DNA of 50,416 nucleotides from Campylobacterota bacterium (GCA_034722955.1 JAYEOM010000028.1:1-50416); one strand, 5' to 3'; positions 1-31,824 are shown, counted from the first letter of the stretch. The notes: a model not told the origin generated them from the sequence alone. Program-made: numbers and translations.

Positions 1-327
1 CCCACAAGAGTCTGAGTATGCCCGAACGAAGTGACAAATGCCCTTGGGGTGCGCCCGAGCAAAGCGACAAAGTGCTCTTGGGGTGCCGATGAGGAGCACA
101 GTGGCGGATTAGTTCGTAGTAGTGATGAAGCTCCTGTAATGGGAGTGGAGCAAAGGGGCTAACTTATTCAATCTGAAAGATAGACCAATCAGAAATGAGA
201 GGAGTTCATCTACAAAGATAATAGCTTGACAATAGTTAAACTTGAATAAGAAGAGCCGTGTGACGGGAGACTGTCACGCACGGTTCTGTGAGAGCCTGAG
301 GGGGAAGTTCCCACGGGCGACTCGACT
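1..327 (+). mobile_element. 3' portion of a group II intron (IIB-like) with no intron-encoded ORF; 5' end lies outside the window
   Basis: Canonical 34-nt domain V GAGCCGTGTGACGGGAGACTGTCACGCACGGTTC at 253-286 (AGC triad). Domain VI-like TGTGAGAGCCTGAGGGGGAAGTTCCCACGGGCGACTCGAC(T) ends at about 326-327. J2/3 GGA at 106-108. Domain III closed by TTAGTTC(109-115)/GGGCTAA(156-162). Domain IV closed by a perfect 9-bp stem CTTATTCAA(163-171)/TTGAATAAG(242-250). Confidence 0.93.
19..85 (+). repeat. Two tandem 33-34 nt GCCCG...CTTGGGGTG mini-repeat units inside the intron
   Basis: TGCCCGAACGAAGTGACAAATGCCCTTGGGGTG (19-51) followed by CGCCCGAGCAAAGCGACAAAGTGCTCTTGGGGTG (52-85). A related unit lies at 31698-31723. 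Confidence 0.8.
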
Positions 328-613
328 GATGAAAATAAACTTTTAATCATATTTATCTCTTCCATTTACTATAGACTCTAGCCACCCAAAGAGTATGCGT
401 ATGCTCATAGTGACTCCTTTGTCTGGTTGAAGTAATTTGATTTGATTTTAGCTGAATGTTTGTTTAAGTTTGGTGAGAGGGTGTTTTTGGTGTGTGTTTA
501 GTGACTTAATTATTTGTTACCTCTTTGCCCATGAATGTAAAAGTGTATATTCGCCACCTGACCCTAAGATTCTGGATCGGGGATAGGAATAGTGCCAAGA
601 TTCTTGCAAAATT

Positions 614-1527: not shown

Positions 1528-4500
1528 TCACCGTGCTATTTCGATACCATCGATCCCTAGTTTGCTATCTTTCTCAGTGATGGTTAGTAGATGTTTGCTG
1601 GTTCCTCGTAGTTTTTTGTGACCATTGTCTAGTGTATACTTGAAAATGATCTTGACTTGATAGTTGTGTAGTGTGCTGTCTTCACTGACTATCTGGATAT
1701 CTTGGATGCTGTAACTCTTTTTTGCCCACTCTCCGTTGTACTGCTCTTTGTTCTTTAAGATATATGACTTGCTTACATTGTCTCTGCTAAAGTAGTGTTT
1801 GACAGGGAAGTGAAAGTATTTGAGGAAATCTTGAGGGTCAGCGTTGGAGGCTTCGAGCATGTAGAACTCTCTAACTAGCTCTTTGACCTCATCTCTAGGA
1901 GGGTAGCCTGTTTGTGGCTGCTGTGATATCTCTTGTTTGGTTTTTACTATGACTGTCTCTGTCTGTTTGGCATAGTCGTTGATACGGCTGTCATACATAG
2001 CCTCTACACTCACAGCAGGGAGATGGCACTCTCCTAGTGTTGTCGCTATAAGTGGAGTGTAGATAACAGTTTTGTTTTGGAGTATGACGACTCTGGTTTT
2101 GTTGCTTCCTGGGATCTTCTCTCTCTTTGTCTTTTTATCTACAGAGAGAAAATGCAGGACTCTATCATCTCGTATATCTTTATAGTCAAGATCCAAGTTG
2201 ACATCCTTAAAAGGACTACTGTTTGATTTGCTTATGCGTGTATTGACGATATCCATACAGGCAGGGATGCGTTCGTTGAGGACTATATTGTCTATGGAGG
2301 CCATGTTACCTAGTGTCACTTTGCTATAGATCTTGCTCCCCTGCTCTAAGTTTTTGAGATTTACCTGATCTCCATCTATATCGATAAACTCTCTGCTGAT
2401 ACTCAACTTTTTTTGTTGGGAGAGTCTGTTTTTGATAGGATGAGGCAGTGGTTTGAATAGTTCAACTGTATAGTTGACTACACCTGAAAATGGATCGATA
2501 ACGATACGATCACCCAGCATCTTTCTGGTAAAGGCAGTCGTTTTGTCGTAGCTCTCCTTCTCTCCATTGATTATGATATTGACACCCATATCTTTTTGGA
2601 TCGCTTCTCCTAAATAGGTCGCTATCGCCCTAAATGCCAATGCCTTCTCTTGGGTAGAGTATAGTTTGGAGAGTTGCCTCTTGGCATCTTGGTAATCCTC
2701 TTGGTTTTTGGTAAAGTATTTGGAGTTGAGATAGAAGACTAGGAACATATCTCTACTGCGTGATGCGAAAGCTCTAGTGGTATCACTATAGTCTACCTTC
2801 TCTATATCACTCAGACGAATTGCTGCTACATGGGCATAAACCTCTTTGGAGAGTTTCTCATTGCCTATATTTTTGAGTAGTGCACTCATATAGTAGTAGG
2901 AGAGGTAGTAGGAGTTGTATATCTTTTTATCATAAAGCATATTTGCACTGCTCTGAGGTAACTTGCCATGAATAGAGAGGATATAGGCAGCATAGATTCG
3001 TAGAGGCTTATCATATTTGGCACTGAGTCTGTTTTTGGCTTGAACTATGTTGTCAAGTGCCTTGAAGATACGCTGTTTGACATCATCATCTAGATAGACT
3101 CCAGAGGCATTGAGATCGAGTAGTGTCTCCGAAGCGTAGAGAGATGCATAAGCATTGATATATCCATCAGGCTCCCAATAAGCGAACTCTCCATATCCAT
3201 TTTGTTGGTTGGAGAGTTTTTTGACCCCTTGTTGGATATAGTTTTTGCTATTGCTGAGGAGTTTGTCTTCACGCATAAATGGTTTAGCATAGAACATTGC
3301 AGCGATCTTTGAACTCGTCTGCTCTGCACATCCATAAGGGTACCCAACTAGATATTTCAAATCACCATAGAGTTGTCCTAGGAGATTGTCAGAGAGACCA
3401 ACTAATGCTTTGGCTTGGCTATATTTTGCAGGGATATCTATGATGACAGGTTTGGTTGTGGCACCTTGGTAGAGTTTGCTCTGAAGCACATATGGACTCA
3501 TCACCATAAGCTTGACAGAGTTGCTAAATGTTTGACCATCTAACTCTATCTGAAGTTTGATAGAGCCTTTTCCCTCTTGAGTCGCTTCTAGTTGAGCTGT
3601 GATGAGTGTAGAGCTATTGGGTGCTACTGCAAAAGCATCATCATCAAACTTCATCGTCAAGTTACTGCTGACACTCTTTGTGAGTTGAACTATCTTCTCG
3701 CTCTGTGTGGTATTAAAGATACGGATAGGTACTTTGACCTTGTCACCCTTGAGGATAAATCTAGGGTAGGATGGCTTGATCATAATATCATCTTTGATGA
3801 TAAGATCCCTGCTCTCTACTCCTATAGAGTTGGCATCTAGTGCGACCACTACGATAGTCGCCTTGCCATTGAACTCTGGTATCTCTAAGTTGTAGGATGC
3901 TTTTTTGTCCTTGGTATAGATGATATTTGACCAGAGCATAAATGGTTTGACTCTATCTATATTTTCAGGAGCCAAGTGTTTTTTTCTCTTCTCTACAGCT
4001 ATGTCACCTGCACCAAAAGCGATGATATTTCCCTCGGTCAGGTAGTTCATCACCTTCTCATATATATCAAAGTAGAGTAGTTTTTGATCTGCTTGCTGGT
4101 TGAAGAAGTCAAATATTTTCGGTGGTTTCTGTTCGGTGATATTGAGTATGCCGGCATCTACAACGGAGACAAGCAGAGCAGACTCTCTATCTGTTGTGAT
4201 ACTCAATGGTGTAGTATGTCTGGATGGTGTTGTCTCATTGCAATCTAGTGTGATAGTGATACGATGTTTATCTCTGTTGGGCTTGATAAATTCATAGCCC
4301 ATCGCTCTAAAAGGGATGATGGAGGAGTGGGTATCTGTCTTCCTGACAGCTGTAGCATGCAAGTAGAGACCATGCCCCATCTCCATATCGAGAGGGATAT
4401 CCACTTGTGCGGCTCCTTTGTCTATAGCGATACTCTTGTGCCAATATACCTTGTCACCCTCTACAGTGATGAGTAGATACCCCTTCAAGATGGGAGATTT

Positions 4501-7260
4501 GAAAGATGCTTTGAGTCGGTCACCTCTGCTGTAGAGCTTATCTTCAAAGCTGATCTCTACTCGTTTTAGATCAGCTTTGGGTGAGATATTTGTATAGCCC
4601 CAGCCACTCACTTCCAGATCTACACTTGCACTATGTCCTCCTAGTCTGTCATGAACCTCTATGATATAGTCTCCATTGGACTGCAGAGTGCGTTGGAAGT
4701 CTTGGTTGGCAGGGGTGTCAAAGCTGTCGATAGTCTCTGTTTCACTCTCCCAATTGTATTTGCCGTCACTATAGCTGTAGTGCCAATTTCTTTTTTTGAT
4801 CAAGACGCTCAGCTCTCTCTCGGCAGGCTTCATCGTCAGAGGATCGATAAGTATCGCTTTGGCTTTGAAGATTTGACCCGACTCTATAGATCCCTGATCA
4901 CTCTTGATGCCTACCATATGTTTGTATGGATAGATATAGATCTCTCTGTAGGTGGCTACAGGTTGTGTATCATCCATGATCGTAGCCCCTATAGTCGCTT
5001 TGAGTATCGAGGGAACCTCCTGATCAACTCTGCATGGCAGAAGCAGTTCTATTTTGCCCTCTTCATCGAGTATGATATCTTGAGTTATGTCCAGATAGAG
5101 TTGTTCATTATCTTCATTGAGTGATCCATTGCTAAAGCTGTAATCCTTGAACTCCTTATGGCTAAAGTCATGAGCTATGGCACTATAATTTACTTTGCCT
5201 GATAGGTCAGCGGAGGGGGCTCCGAAGAGATATGAGGAGGAGATAGTAGCTTTGATATAGTCATCGCCACTATAGAATGGTTTGTCTGTTTTGATGCTAT
5301 TCTCTATCTGAGGCGGCATGAAGGCTTCTACATCTATGATCTTTTTGCCTATCATCTTTTTGCCAAGCCAAACTTTGAGCTGATATGCTCCTGTAGTATC
5401 TTCATTTGACATCTTGTGAGAGAAGTCAATGATACCTAGAGTGTCAGTTGTATGAACCTCCTCAAGTATGTTGCCATCCTGAAGAGGTGCTAGTGTCACC
5501 TTGAGAGGAATATCGCTCGCTGAGATAAAGTCTCTATCTTTGACGGTGATCATAGCATGGATCACTCCTGATGGTCGTATGATATCACTCTGGAAATATA
5601 TAAATGCTCTGTATCTCTCCACCTCTCTCTTCAAGGTTTTGTAGTTTACACTGTTGAGAGATTTGTTTAATAGTAAAAAGCTTCTGTCTTTGGGGGTTGA
5701 GATGATGATAGCTTTGGGTTTTTTACTCAATAGCAATTTTTTATCGATGATAGCGATGCCATCTCTATCAGAGTTGGCAGTGGCTATTAGGATATTGTTG
5801 GCCGAGTAGAGCTCTACTGTAGCTCCCTCTATGGGTGTACCGTCACTCAAACGCAATAGAGAGACGAAGGCTTGTTCATTTGAAAGATTGGCAGAGATCC
5901 CTATATCACTGACAAAGATGACTTTTGAAGCACTCCGATCGACTATCTCTCCATCACTATCTCTATCTTCATATTGGATAGTGACACGATAGACCCCATT
6001 TGTCGCCTTTTGGGTCAAATCTTTTAGTAGTATTTTCTGTTTTTGGATTTGGTTGTGAGGATTGTCTAGGGTGATATCTTTGGCAAATATCTCCTCTGTA
6101 AACTTCTGAACACCTTTGAGTATCCCTTGGTGATAGTTTATAAAGTACCGGTAGTTGTCATGGGTGATCTTGTCAACTATAACTGTGGCTTTAGAGATAT
6201 TGATACTGGAAAATCCTATCTCTCCTAAATGGGACATGTATGGTTTGTCCGCTTCTATCAGGATGCCACTCTTTCTGTCACCTGTGTCAAAGGTAAAAGA
6301 TATATCATCTTTGAGTTGAGCATAATAGTGTCTCAAGCCCTTTTTGAGTGTTAATTTGTAGCTACTATTGGCTTGAAACTCAGGAGAGGTGATATCTATA
6401 GCATAGAAGCTATCTTCCAAACCAAGCTCCTCTCTATCTTCATAGTCCAGATAGATATCTTGTTTGACTTGGAAATCCTCTATCCCCTCCAATTCAATAA
6501 AATCTATGATGGGGTTTTCGTCAAAATTGTCTTCAAAGAAGAGCCGTATCGAAAAACTTCCATCATCGTTGGATACCATGATAGGTTCATCTTCCATAAT
6601 CATCTCAGAGACTTTATCATTGAGTTTGACCTGTGGTGGTCGCAGCTTCTCTATAGTTTTGATCACTTCACTCCCTAGTCTATCTCCAGAGGTAGTTGTC
6701 AGCGAGGGGAGTAGCTGTAGTTTTAGATTGTCTCCTGTAGCCTCTGTGATCTTGAGGAGGAGTCTTCTGCCATCTTGGCTGCTGAGTTTGTAGTGCAGCT
6801 CCGTATGTGCCAAGTTGTTCATCTTGTATAGCTTGATAGACTCTTTAGCATTTTTGAGATCAACCTGATCATTTAGTACAATCTCTAGGAGTTTCTCTCT
6901 ATCCCTGTAGTGCCAATCCAAGAGTCCAAACTCCTCTGTCTCAAATGCAAAAGTCAACTCCTCATTTATGTCATCATGGAGCCACTCTCTGGCTAGTTCA
7001 CAAACATAACGATGTGAACTCTTCAGTGGTTGACGCGGAAGAATTTCAAGTTTTTTGCTGGAGTGATACTTGTAGACGGCATCTATAGGAGGTGTGCAGG
7101 AGAGTAGTTTTTTATGAGTATAGAGTGTCGTATCATCAAAGATCTTCTCTTCTGACTGCAGCGTGATACTCTGATCACTCTCTACCACTTCATCTGTCAC
7201 TGTTACCGCATAGGTAAAACTCATAAATAGCAATATTGATATCAATAACCGTAAAAACAT
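1528..7260 (-). CDS. Bacterial alpha-2-macroglobulin with intact thioester motif
   Basis: 1910 aa with signal peptide. MG-domain motifs (SDIGI, VEAFMPP, YLFGAP, LLVSVVDAGIL), YPYGCAEQ thioester motif, C-terminal DIRDDRV and EAMYD. Confidence 0.93.
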   Translation of the reverse strand: MFLRLLISILLFMSFTYAVTVTDEVVESDQSITLQSEEKIFDDTTLYTHKKLLSCTPPIDAVYKYHSSKKLEILPRQPLKSSHRYVCELAREWLHDDINEELTFAFETEEFGLLDWHYRDREKLLEIVLNDQVDLKNAKESIKLYKMNNLAHTELHYKLSSQDGRRLLLKITEATGDNLKLQLLPSLTTTSGDRLGSEVIKTIEKLRPPQVKLNDKVSEMIMEDEPIMVSNDDGSFSIRLFFEDNFDENPIIDFIELEGIEDFQVKQDIYLDYEDREELGLEDSFYAIDITSPEFQANSSYKLTLKKGLRHYYAQLKDDISFTFDTGDRKSGILIEADKPYMSHLGEIGFSSINISKATVIVDKITHDNYRYFINYHQGILKGVQKFTEEIFAKDITLDNPHNQIQKQKILLKDLTQKATNGVYRVTIQYEDRDSDGEIVDRSASKVIFVSDIGISANLSNEQAFVSLLRLSDGTPIEGATVELYSANNILIATANSDRDGIAIIDKKLLLSKKPKAIIISTPKDRSFLLLNKSLNSVNYKTLKREVERYRAFIYFQSDIIRPSGVIHAMITVKDRDFISASDIPLKVTLAPLQDGNILEEVHTTDTLGIIDFSHKMSNEDTTGAYQLKVWLGKKMIGKKIIDVEAFMPPQIENSIKTDKPFYSGDDYIKATISSSYLFGAPSADLSGKVNYSAIAHDFSHKEFKDYSFSNGSLNEDNEQLYLDITQDIILDEEGKIELLLPCRVDQEVPSILKATIGATIMDDTQPVATYREIYIYPYKHMVGIKSDQGSIESGQIFKAKAILIDPLTMKPAERELSVLIKKRNWHYSYSDGKYNWESETETIDSFDTPANQDFQRTLQSNGDYIIEVHDRLGGHSASVDLEVSGWGYTNISPKADLKRVEISFEDKLYSRGDRLKASFKSPILKGYLLITVEGDKVYWHKSIAIDKGAAQVDIPLDMEMGHGLYLHATAVRKTDTHSSIIPFRAMGYEFIKPNRDKHRITITLDCNETTPSRHTTPLSITTDRESALLVSVVDAGILNITEQKPPKIFDFFNQQADQKLLYFDIYEKVMNYLTEGNIIAFGAGDIAVEKRKKHLAPENIDRVKPFMLWSNIIYTKDKKASYNLEIPEFNGKATIVVVALDANSIGVESRDLIIKDDIMIKPSYPRFILKGDKVKVPIRIFNTTQSEKIVQLTKSVSSNLTMKFDDDAFAVAPNSSTLITAQLEATQEGKGSIKLQIELDGQTFSNSVKLMVMSPYVLQSKLYQGATTKPVIIDIPAKYSQAKALVGLSDNLLGQLYGDLKYLVGYPYGCAEQTSSKIAAMFYAKPFMREDKLLSNSKNYIQQGVKKLSNQQNGYGEFAYWEPDGYINAYASLYASETLLDLNASGVYLDDDVKQRIFKALDNIVQAKNRLSAKYDKPLRIYAAYILSIHGKLPQSSANMLYDKKIYNSYYLSYYYMSALLKNIGNEKLSKEVYAHVAAIRLSDIEKVDYSDTTRAFASRSRDMFLVFYLNSKYFTKNQEDYQDAKRQLSKLYSTQEKALAFRAIATYLGEAIQKDMGVNIIINGEKESYDKTTAFTRKMLGDRIVIDPFSGVVNYTVELFKPLPHPIKNRLSQQKKLSISREFIDIDGDQVNLKNLEQGSKIYSKVTLGNMASIDNIVLNERIPACMDIVNTRISKSNSSPFKDVNLDLDYKDIRDDRVLHFLSVDKKTKREKIPGSNKTRVVILQNKTVIYTPLIATTLGECHLPAVSVEAMYDSRINDYAKQTETVIVKTKQEISQQPQTGYPPRDEVKELVREFYMLEASNADPQDFLKYFHFPVKHYFSRDNVSKSYILKNKEQYNGEWAKKSYSIQDIQIVSEDSTLHNYQVKIIFKYTLDNGHKKLRGTSKHLLTITEKDSKLGIDGIEIAR

Positions 7261-31612: not shown

Positions 31613-31788
31613 CTACCCCAAGGAGATAAACACACAAATAGCTTTATGAGGTTTTTCATAGACAAGGCAATCGTTTGAAGGACTAGCCTTAGCTAATTGC
31701 CCGCAGGAAATGCCCTTGGGGTGCAAAAACGATTAACGCCGTATATGGGAAACCTCATAAAGCCCGCAGGGAAGCCACCAAGAGGGCA
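31613..31788. mobile_element. Miniature hairpin element (REPIN/MITE-like) with a nested mini-repeat
   Basis: 20-bp arms at 31641-31660 and 31744-31763 (18 Watson-Crick plus 2 G-T pairs); inner arms AATCGTTT/AAACGATT. Minus-strand ends read TGCCC...CCTTGGGGTA. Nested TGCCCGCAGGAAATGCCCTTGGGGTG at 31698-31723. Confidence 0.65.
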
Positions 31789-31824
31789 ATCTTCACAAAA
31801 TATAATTCTTGAATTAGCTATGTG

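Follow-up and report, generated by a model that had tools for sequence, protein, structure and literature searches.

The analysed stretch of DNA, further referred to as the window, comprises 50,416 nt of a Campylobacterota genome (G000:C28:1-50416) and begins at base 1 of the 54,363-nt contig C28. Its first 326 bases are an intron with a repeat inside, neither a gene nor a spacer. The catalytic end of the intron is recognized by the Rfam family RF00029 (Intron_gpII, DV+DVI), which matches positions 251–326 over the full model (1–77) with 63.8 bits (E 2.6e-10, gathering score 40) and is the sole gathering-level Rfam match in the 50-kb window. Group II introns are distinguished by a 34-nt DV with an AGC triad and a 2-nt bulge, followed by DVI with a bulged A near the 3'-end. 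By the RF00029 alignment this hallmark is present: the 34-nt DV occupies positions 253–286 of the plus strand and DVI positions 288–326, with A320, 7 nt from the 3'-end, as the candidate branch point. The original prediction of an ORF-less group II intron with intact DIII, DV and DVI is borne out by this full-model match, together with the complete DIII, the short DIV and the ORF-less relatives described below.

The domains upstream of DV, all on the plus strand, were delimited by comparison with related introns, including the alignment A1, which contains seven of them (two ORF-less and five ORF-type) and a structure predicted by RNAalifold. DIV (88 nt) occupies positions 163–250, as follows from stem comparison, folding and the alignment to the end of the ORF in a complete relative (L043). 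DIII (109–162) consists of a 7-bp basal stem, a 2-bp middle helix and a 6-bp terminal hairpin (helices 4–6 of A1), and the window sequence folds into the same shape. The J2/3 linker (101–108) corresponds to the unpaired A1 columns 148–153 between the DII and DIII helices. Positions 86–100 are the 3'-strand of the DII basal helix (helix 2 of A1), whose 5' partner lies beyond the contig start. Positions 1–18 are the distal 3' part of DII, that is, the end of the inner hairpin and the internal loop (A1 columns 113–130).

Positions 19–85 do not belong to the intron. In three ORF-less relatives (L049, L050 and L047) an identical 17–18-mer of window positions 1–18 directly adjoins the sequence equivalent to window position 86 onward, and hence 1–18 is intron and 19–85 is a 67-nt insertion, composed of two REP-like units of about 33 nt each (19–52 and 53–85, bounds within about 3 nt). 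For the same reason we rejected the view that 17–86 are REP units of an intergenic region and that the intron is truncated on its 5' side at about position 87. The original prediction had assigned the whole of 1–108 to the intron; this assignment is retained for the DII pieces and J2/3 (1–18 and 86–108), and the insertion had gone unnoticed. Its overall extent of 1–327 is likewise right for the intron with a correction at the 3'-end, since comparison with empty sites places the last intron base at C326 and makes T327 the first base of the 3' exon.

Flanked by the DII internal loop and the 3'-strand of the basal helix, the insertion is inside peripheral DII and outside J2/3; the three ORF-less relatives lack it, as do all the ORF-containing relatives examined. 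As the insertion abuts the DII basal helix, it could disturb folding. A metagenome contig (X3, record 17) is exact over 86–151 and has 76 other letters before position 86; it may represent a copy without the repeat insertion. Both units have a core (..TGCYCTTGGGGTGC) in common with units from further genomes of this family. A similar 25-nt unit is inserted in intron DI at the end of another contig of the same genome (G000:C21:22812-22840), and a 33-nt unit in reverse orientation lies in frame in the IEP gene of L043 (approximately 630–670), where it contributes 11 extra residues. The folding energies of the REP-like units are not unusual (z from −0.1 to −1.4). Such units were also seen in tandem intergenic arrays (L020, 190–260 and 1098–1170) and inside an RHS-like frame (L018, 1501–1537). 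Small repeats that enter genes in frame are possibly worth a separate study.

Since the window starts at contig base 1, the intron is cut by the assembly and has no upstream flank. The missing 5' part of this copy, which we infer to exist in the genome, would comprise about 480 unassembled nucleotides. An Rfam E-value scan of window positions 1–600 yielded no match to any D1-D4 family, because DI is missing from the window. The assembly G000 consists of 140 contigs, the smallest being 1586 nt, with none below about 1.5 kb. A DI–DIII profile built from six relatives was used in an nhmmer search, and the missing DI–DII was found in none of these contigs: matches occur only on C21, C47, C28, C139 and C67, and none of them spans profile positions 230–425. 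In the window the profile matches 83–178 (E 4.7e-22) and has no other match within 1–400 even at E 100 with all filters off; its silence over 1–18 is consistent, as 18 nt are too short to score. Contig C21 was considered as directly abutting C28, given that window 6–19 resembles DI of L031 (approximately 134–147) and C21 ends 6 nt before this motif. This candidate was rejected: nhmmer finds no DI homology in window 1–82, and the true match of 1–18 is the end of DII.

The break itself is explained by the repeat units, which are abundant and enriched at contig ends. Ten of the 25 matches to the repeat core in G000 are no more than 500 nt away from a contig end, compared to 5.6% expected from the genome. 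The summed metagenome depth over window 1–50 is approximately 1300 against a baseline of approximately 25, depth not being copy number. Loose contig ends at window 14–18, among the best-supported ends listed, are those of further repeat-unit copies. The same core motif occurs in a dispersed repeat of about 130–150 nt located at approximately 31660–31790 of the window, where it lies between a long complementary pair (..AATCGTTTG .. CAAAAACGATT..). G000 has about 18 more copies of this repeat (e.g., C10:~1810-1940, C39, C56, C131, C134), one of them inside an intron fragment on C139 and many near contig ends, and the repeat matches no Rfam family at the gathering level.

On the other side the intron is followed by a MITE-like repeat (327–569) and by genes; the next three genes are on the opposite strand. 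By the ORF list, the minus strand at 614–1394 encodes a GNAT acetyltransferase toxin-like protein (172 aa) and a small upstream antitoxin-like protein (90 aa), convergent with the intron; homologues of this pair were found in 21 of 249 other genomes of the family at 65–73% DNA identity. A 1910-aa ORF at 1528–7260 (minus strand) looks alpha-2-macroglobulin-like by eye.

Conserved domains and loss of the reading frame

Judging from the predicted A1 structure and its covariation support, DII and DIII are present as conserved helices between DI and DIV. The A1 fold contains a long DII basal helix (3'-strand equivalent to window 86–100), an inner DII hairpin that ends in window 1–18, and a DIII of three helices equivalent to window 109–162, and the window aligns to the DII 3'-strand, J2/3 and DIII of the related introns. 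Of 357 cells in the DII and DIII helices, 96.9% are paired, versus 34–49% when the partners are slid by one to three columns, on a structure that was predicted from the same alignment that served for pair counting and is thereby favoured. Two-sided changes occur in 14 of the 51 pairs. In 500 shuffles neither the percent paired nor the covariation score of the real alignment was ever attained, and three shuffles attained its number of covarying pairs. The DIII helices are paired in all seven introns (98–100% of cells, with two-sided changes in 7 of 15 pairs). In the DII basal helix, the ORF-less and ORF-type introns differ in both partners at 6 of 18 pairs, and in DII a run of four adjacent pairs has both bases replaced from one lineage to the other. 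A pairing of 92–98 with 130–136, proposed by eye, was rejected, as it is not conserved in the relatives, which have a covarying hairpin (132–149) in its place.

DIV is closed by a basal stem of positions 163–171 (CTTATTCAA) and 242–250 (TTGAATAAG), a perfect 9-bp complement enclosing 70 nt, exactly as had been predicted. In eight of eight copies compared, 8 or 9 of the 9 pairs are kept with three different sequences. In the window, L049 and L050 the stem encloses 70 nt, and in L047 it encloses 59 nt, which corresponds to a DIV of 88 nt in three of the four ORF-less copies and 77 nt in L047. It encloses 1275 and 1331 nt in the ORF-type introns L028 and L043, respectively, and 2395 and 2543 nt in two copies from genome G195 with extra inserts, which look like IS insertions as judged from the ORF lists.

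Within the stem, the window retains a 5' DIVa-like arm with GAGGAG at 199–204, an ORF remnant at 210–229 that aligns to the last codons and the stop of the L043 ORF, and, at approximately 224–243, a small 3' hairpin. The ORF-less DIV is predicted to fold as a three-way junction; covariation inside it is weak, with two pairs in the 3' hairpin (L050 versus the others), a number equalled by 165 of 500 shuffles. No plus-strand ORF of at least 30 aa lies wholly within 163–250, and two short plus-strand frames overlapping DIV (31–162 and 242–346) pass through DIII and DV–DVI. The 5' joint of DIV, after GAGAGGAGTT, is common to all four ORF-less copies (the window, L049, L050 and L047).

The position of this joint relative to the lost start codon can be read from a fragment in genome G006 (L014). 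Its 72 nt match window 134–205 at 90%, lie directly after an hsdS-like gene, and continue into an ATG and a 6-codon frame. It has the same DIVa and is the one relative that retains a start codon after a DIVa of the window type: the ATG stands 6 nt after GAGGAG, at the place of a TAC in the window. That DIVa is conserved in L049, L050 and L047 is in part built into the search, since these three relatives were found via an exact 27-mer from it. By this comparison, one apparently clean deletion has removed the ORF from about the start codon to about 20 nt before the stop codon. A clean loss of the ORF had been predicted, and it agrees with what is retained, namely the DIV stem, the DIVa-like region with a Shine-Dalgarno sequence, and the last 20 or so nucleotides of the ORF. 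The string quoted in the prediction for 187–210 is present, and the reading of ATC as a replaced ATG finds no support: the aligned position is the TAC, and there is no point mutation to consider, because the two sides of the deletion meet at the start codon or before it.

The possibility that an assembly collapse had removed the ORF, raised along with the prediction, is contradicted by Logan contigs from four brine-metagenome runs of one study, one run possibly being the source sample of the window. They cover window positions 46–115, 86–279, 145–279, 145–275 and 246–376 at 0 differences and thus bridge the joint between the repeat and DII (85/86), the whole DIV and the joint between the intron and the exon. 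Positions 347–475 are covered with 2–4 differences and 491–1500 with 0–2. Since 86–279 is spanned at 0 differences, the short DIV exists as real DNA and did not arise by collapse.

Related introns and the insertion site

ORF-less relatives were identified by a pattern scan with the exact 27-mer from DIVa. It occurs on two contigs in genome_contigs, L047 and L048, the latter with the same fragment as L014, and on three contigs in metagenome_contigs, L049, L050 and L051, the last agreeing with L048 in both length and coordinates. Exact scans with window 1–31 in metagenome_contigs and with window 82–112 in genome_contigs gave 0 matches each. L049 is 92.4% identical to window 83–320; it starts with GTGTGCC (GUGUG) and carries upstream about 500 nt of DI–DII, 85% identical to L043. 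L050 is 91.4% identical to window 83–326, with domains I–II and both flanks present and the 5'-end ambiguous by a few nucleotides. L047, a 562-nt contig, is 89.7% identical to window 83–286. The upstream features whose absence would have counted against the original prediction, a GUGYG start and DI, are seen in relatives only, the former in L049 and the latter in L049 and L050. A search of the host genome for further copies, suggested with the original prediction, produced no second ORF-less copy: the window contains the single one in G000, and none was seen in the rest of the 250 family genomes. On both sides, the flanking sequence of L050 is unlike the 5' flank of L049 and the 3' flank of the window; the sites of the window and L049 are not comparable, as each lacks the side of the flank that the other has. 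Judged by these flanks, ORF-less copies occupy different genomic sites (L050 versus the window and L049).

The DI parts of these copies are less uniform than their 3' parts. L049 is 96–99% identical to the ORF-type intron L042 of another genome over the first 200 nt and about 80% over 301–500. L050 is 62–76% identical to L049 over 1–400 and 83–94% beyond. Both introns are thus mosaics (L049, 1480–1680 versus L042; L050, reverse strand 113–520) of a conserved 3' module, extending from the 3' part of DII to DVI with the 88-nt DIV, and a divergent DI. This pattern suggests that DI has been exchanged between the ORF-less and ORF-type lineages.

ORF-type relatives were found in the same taxonomic family. 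Window 87–250 has matches in 13 of the 250 genomes, G000 included, and window 87–165 is matched at 74–90% in five genomes (G153, G270, G199, G195 and G197; eight places). L043 (G199:C45, minus strand) is a complete 1931-nt intron that starts with GTGTGCC, matches the Rfam family group-II-D1D4-2 with 113 bits, and has DV–DVI after the ORF, 88% identical to those of the window. The ORF encodes a 432-aa IEP with the Pfam domains RVT_1 and GIIM and without an endonuclease domain. The best PDB matches of the IEP are 7uim, 6ar1, 5hhl and 5hhj; 6ar1 is annotated as the GsI-IIC RT, and the other three we take to be group IIC RTs as well. We know of no solved RT from other endonuclease-less classes for comparison. 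DIII of the ORF-type introns L043, L044 and L046 (both G195), L042 (G197) and L028 (G153) is 79–90% identical to that of the window. In these introns the DII, DIII and DIV stems pair as in the ORF-less lineage and the 3' exon TGATG is common to both; unlike the ORF-less copies, they carry a 1.3-kb IEP gene in DIV and a diverged DIVa.

The search for an RT-encoding relative in the same genome had a mixed outcome. G000 contains four DV–DVI matches, each within about 330 nt of a contig end, that is, three intron 3'-ends (C70, C99 and C108) in addition to the window; intron 5'-ends are located at the ends of contigs C21 and C47. C70 begins with the last 11 codons of the IEP (NLFPHWQLKYQ*), and the same bases are present on C99. 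From these ends, full ORF-type copies would be expected in G000, their interiors being unassembled or unbinned. An intact cognate RT gene was not found in G000 by tblastn with the L043 IEP in the assembly without contigs below approximately 1.5 kb; as such contigs are absent, the missing gene is weak evidence. The best tblastn match has 34% identity and falls on a different RT on C60, and 84% identity is reached over a 51-aa fragment on C139. G000 also encodes four other RTs (C60:13705-14490, C109:2220-2882, C47:1693-2592 and C112:261-1013), 22–34% identical to the intron IEP.

The insertion site of the window copy is defined by the 3' exon, a 243-nt MITE-like repeat at window positions 327–569 of the plus strand, whose terminal inverted repeats are 13 nt long (TTAGGGTCAGGTG in C17). 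Three copies in the same genome are unoccupied: C105 (reverse strand 136–387), C17:10-260 and C63:677-722. Positions 327–569 are 97% identical to C105 (reverse strand, 144–386) and, via C105, to C17:10-260; the copy on C63 comprises approximately the first 46 nt of the repeat, also at 97%. The junction in the window reads CTCGAC|TGATGAAA, and the empty sites read GGTCTGG|TGATGAAAC (C105), GGTCAGG|TGATGAAAC (C17) and GACCAGG|TGATGAAAC (C63). ORF-type 5' junctions in G000 (C47 and C21) and in L043 have GTCAGG before GTGTGCC. The 3' exon starts with TGATG in the window, C70, L043 and L046, with TGAT or TGAA in three more copies, and differently in others. Since the junctions agree with the empty sites, the window copy ends at C326 and is at the canonical homing site of the family. 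By these alignments it sits exactly at GGTCWGG^TGATG, inside the left terminal inverted repeat of the MITE-like element, whose sequence TTAGGGTCAGG^TG is itself the insertion site. Between the 5' exons at C21 and C47 and the left flank of the C105 empty site there is no match. A loop proposed as an EBS candidate (CCTGAC in L031) was rejected, as it does not fit all copies.

[quoted passage not shown]

Among bacterial group II introns, ORF-less ones are rare and are nearly always found beside related introns whose IEP may act in trans, according to the survey of Simon et al. (2008) as presented by Zimmerly and Semper (2015, PMC4424553). The present case fits the pattern in that presentation, in a different host group. 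The best known parallel in the material considered here is TeI3 of Thermosynechococcus elongatus, for which the account of Mohr, Ghanem and Lambowitz (2010, PMC2882425) describes 17 ORF-less introns with one deletion, identical break-points, ORF remnants and mobilisation by a driver IEP. We consider it probable that the window copy belongs to a TeI3-like family of non-autonomous ORF-less introns, derived from RT/maturase-encoding introns and served by an RT in trans. As in that account of TeI3, the DIV deletion would be a single ancestral event with the same break-points, remnants of the ORF end are still visible, and the copies occupy target sites of the family in intergenic DNA or in other mobile elements. 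Related ORF-containing introns of the same genome can supply the IEP in TeI3 (PMC2882425); in G000 the IEP tail on C70 may represent such an intron. Some features are different. TeI3 has 17 copies in one genome, compared to one in the present assembly and four found in all, and trans-mobilisation, which is assay-based for TeI3 (PMC2882425), is here a proposal. Unlike TeI3, the related IEP family lacks the endonuclease domain (Pfam RVT_1 and GIIM only), and the window copy is incomplete in the assembly and has a repeat insertion in DII.

Under this scenario the ancestor would be an intron of the RT/maturase-encoding family (1931 nt; its 432-aa IEP lacks an endonuclease domain) that is frequent in this family of Campylobacterota. 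A single deletion would have removed the ORF from just past the Shine-Dalgarno sequence to about 20 nt before the stop codon, so that DIV became an 88-nt three-way junction. The ORF-less RNA would still fold its catalytic core, and the RT/maturase of co-resident ORF-containing relatives, presumably binding to the retained DIVa region, would serve its splicing, reverse splicing and cDNA synthesis, i.e., retrohoming. Retrohoming may have brought the window copy to GGTCWGG^TGATG in the inverted-repeat end of the MITE-like element, and the two REP-like units (67 nt) would have entered the DII internal loop after that. The claim of a non-autonomous retroelement made at the outset fits at the level of the family, given the same deletion in four of four copies, the different site of L050 and the homing site with its empty paralogues. 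As for the window copy itself, the chances that it is active today are about even.

Alternatively, the window copy could be a dead remnant, that is, an ORF-containing intron that decayed in place, was never mobile as an ORF-less RNA and is inert now. Internally deleted remnants are frequent in this group. L025 (G013:C76, 1190–1550) consists of five short pieces of the 1931-nt intron with at least four deletions; at G000:C67:13437-13527 about 240 nt were lost between two 10-nt direct repeats; G000:C139:33-360 combines a 5' intron piece, a repeat insertion and the 51-aa IEP fragment; L022 and L014 are further fragments in relatives. Because truncated and internally deleted remnants occur in the genus, a 5'-truncated window copy is quite possible, and the unassembled 5' part, the repeat in DII and the single copy in the genome agree with decay. 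However, the same 5' joint and the 88-nt DIV are found in L049 and L050 on other contigs, L050 with different flanks, and independent deletions would not yield identical joints. In addition, DI of L050 is far more diverged than its 3' part (62–76% versus 83–94% identity), and DIII, the DIV stem, DV and DVI of the window carry no disrupting changes. We therefore regard decay in place as unlikely.

Still less probable, to the point of being a marginal option, is a ribozyme that acts independently of proteins, either an intron limited to splicing or a hydrolytic endonuclease similar to HYER, with no parasitism on a helper RT. ORF-less introns of class IIC are known as stand-alone DNA-cutting ribozymes (HYER; Liu et al. 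2024, as cited in 10.1101/2024.08.31.610620). The present element resembles HYER, as described in that citing text, in being an ORF-less compact group II ribozyme of approximately 600–700 nt. It differs in occupying a retrohoming site shared with autonomous relatives, and it resides in a MITE-like repeat and not in a gene that needs splicing. A possible affinity to class IIC comes from the PDB matches of the related IEP, of which 6ar1 is the one so named and the others appear to be group IIC RTs as well. Class IIC introns insert just after a hairpin (a terminator or attC). At the C63, C105 and L043 sites no upstream hairpin was seen by eye, and DI has a length of about 360 nt. Finally, an assembly artefact (ORF loss by collapse, or an intron piece misjoined to C28) is suggested by the location at the extreme start of a contig in a 140-contig assembly where repeats, as indicated by the 10 of 25 core matches near contig ends, interrupt contigs, but is hardly credible, as contigs from the four runs bridge all three joints and three other contigs from other collections have the same short DIV.

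Returning to the trans-served ORF-less family, we conclude that the window copy is a new family member of a rare but already described kind of bacterial element. It leaves the current understanding of such introns unchanged, and the gain for annotation is that the contig break is explained. ORF-less introns serve as models of lost autonomy and of dependence on a common splicing and mobility protein. To these models the family adds an example from Campylobacterota with a clear ancestor, a clean deletion and a defined homing site, empty copies of which exist in the same genome, and it shows signs of DI exchange between ORF-less and ORF-containing introns. A bolder and only tentative idea, which we hold to be less likely true than false, is that of an ORF-less element that is modular, mobile at present and parasitic on the autonomous introns, with its 3' module joined to different DI modules and colonised by REP-like units. 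If so, such a mini-intron would take its target-recognition domain from co-resident autonomous introns, via template switching or recombination.
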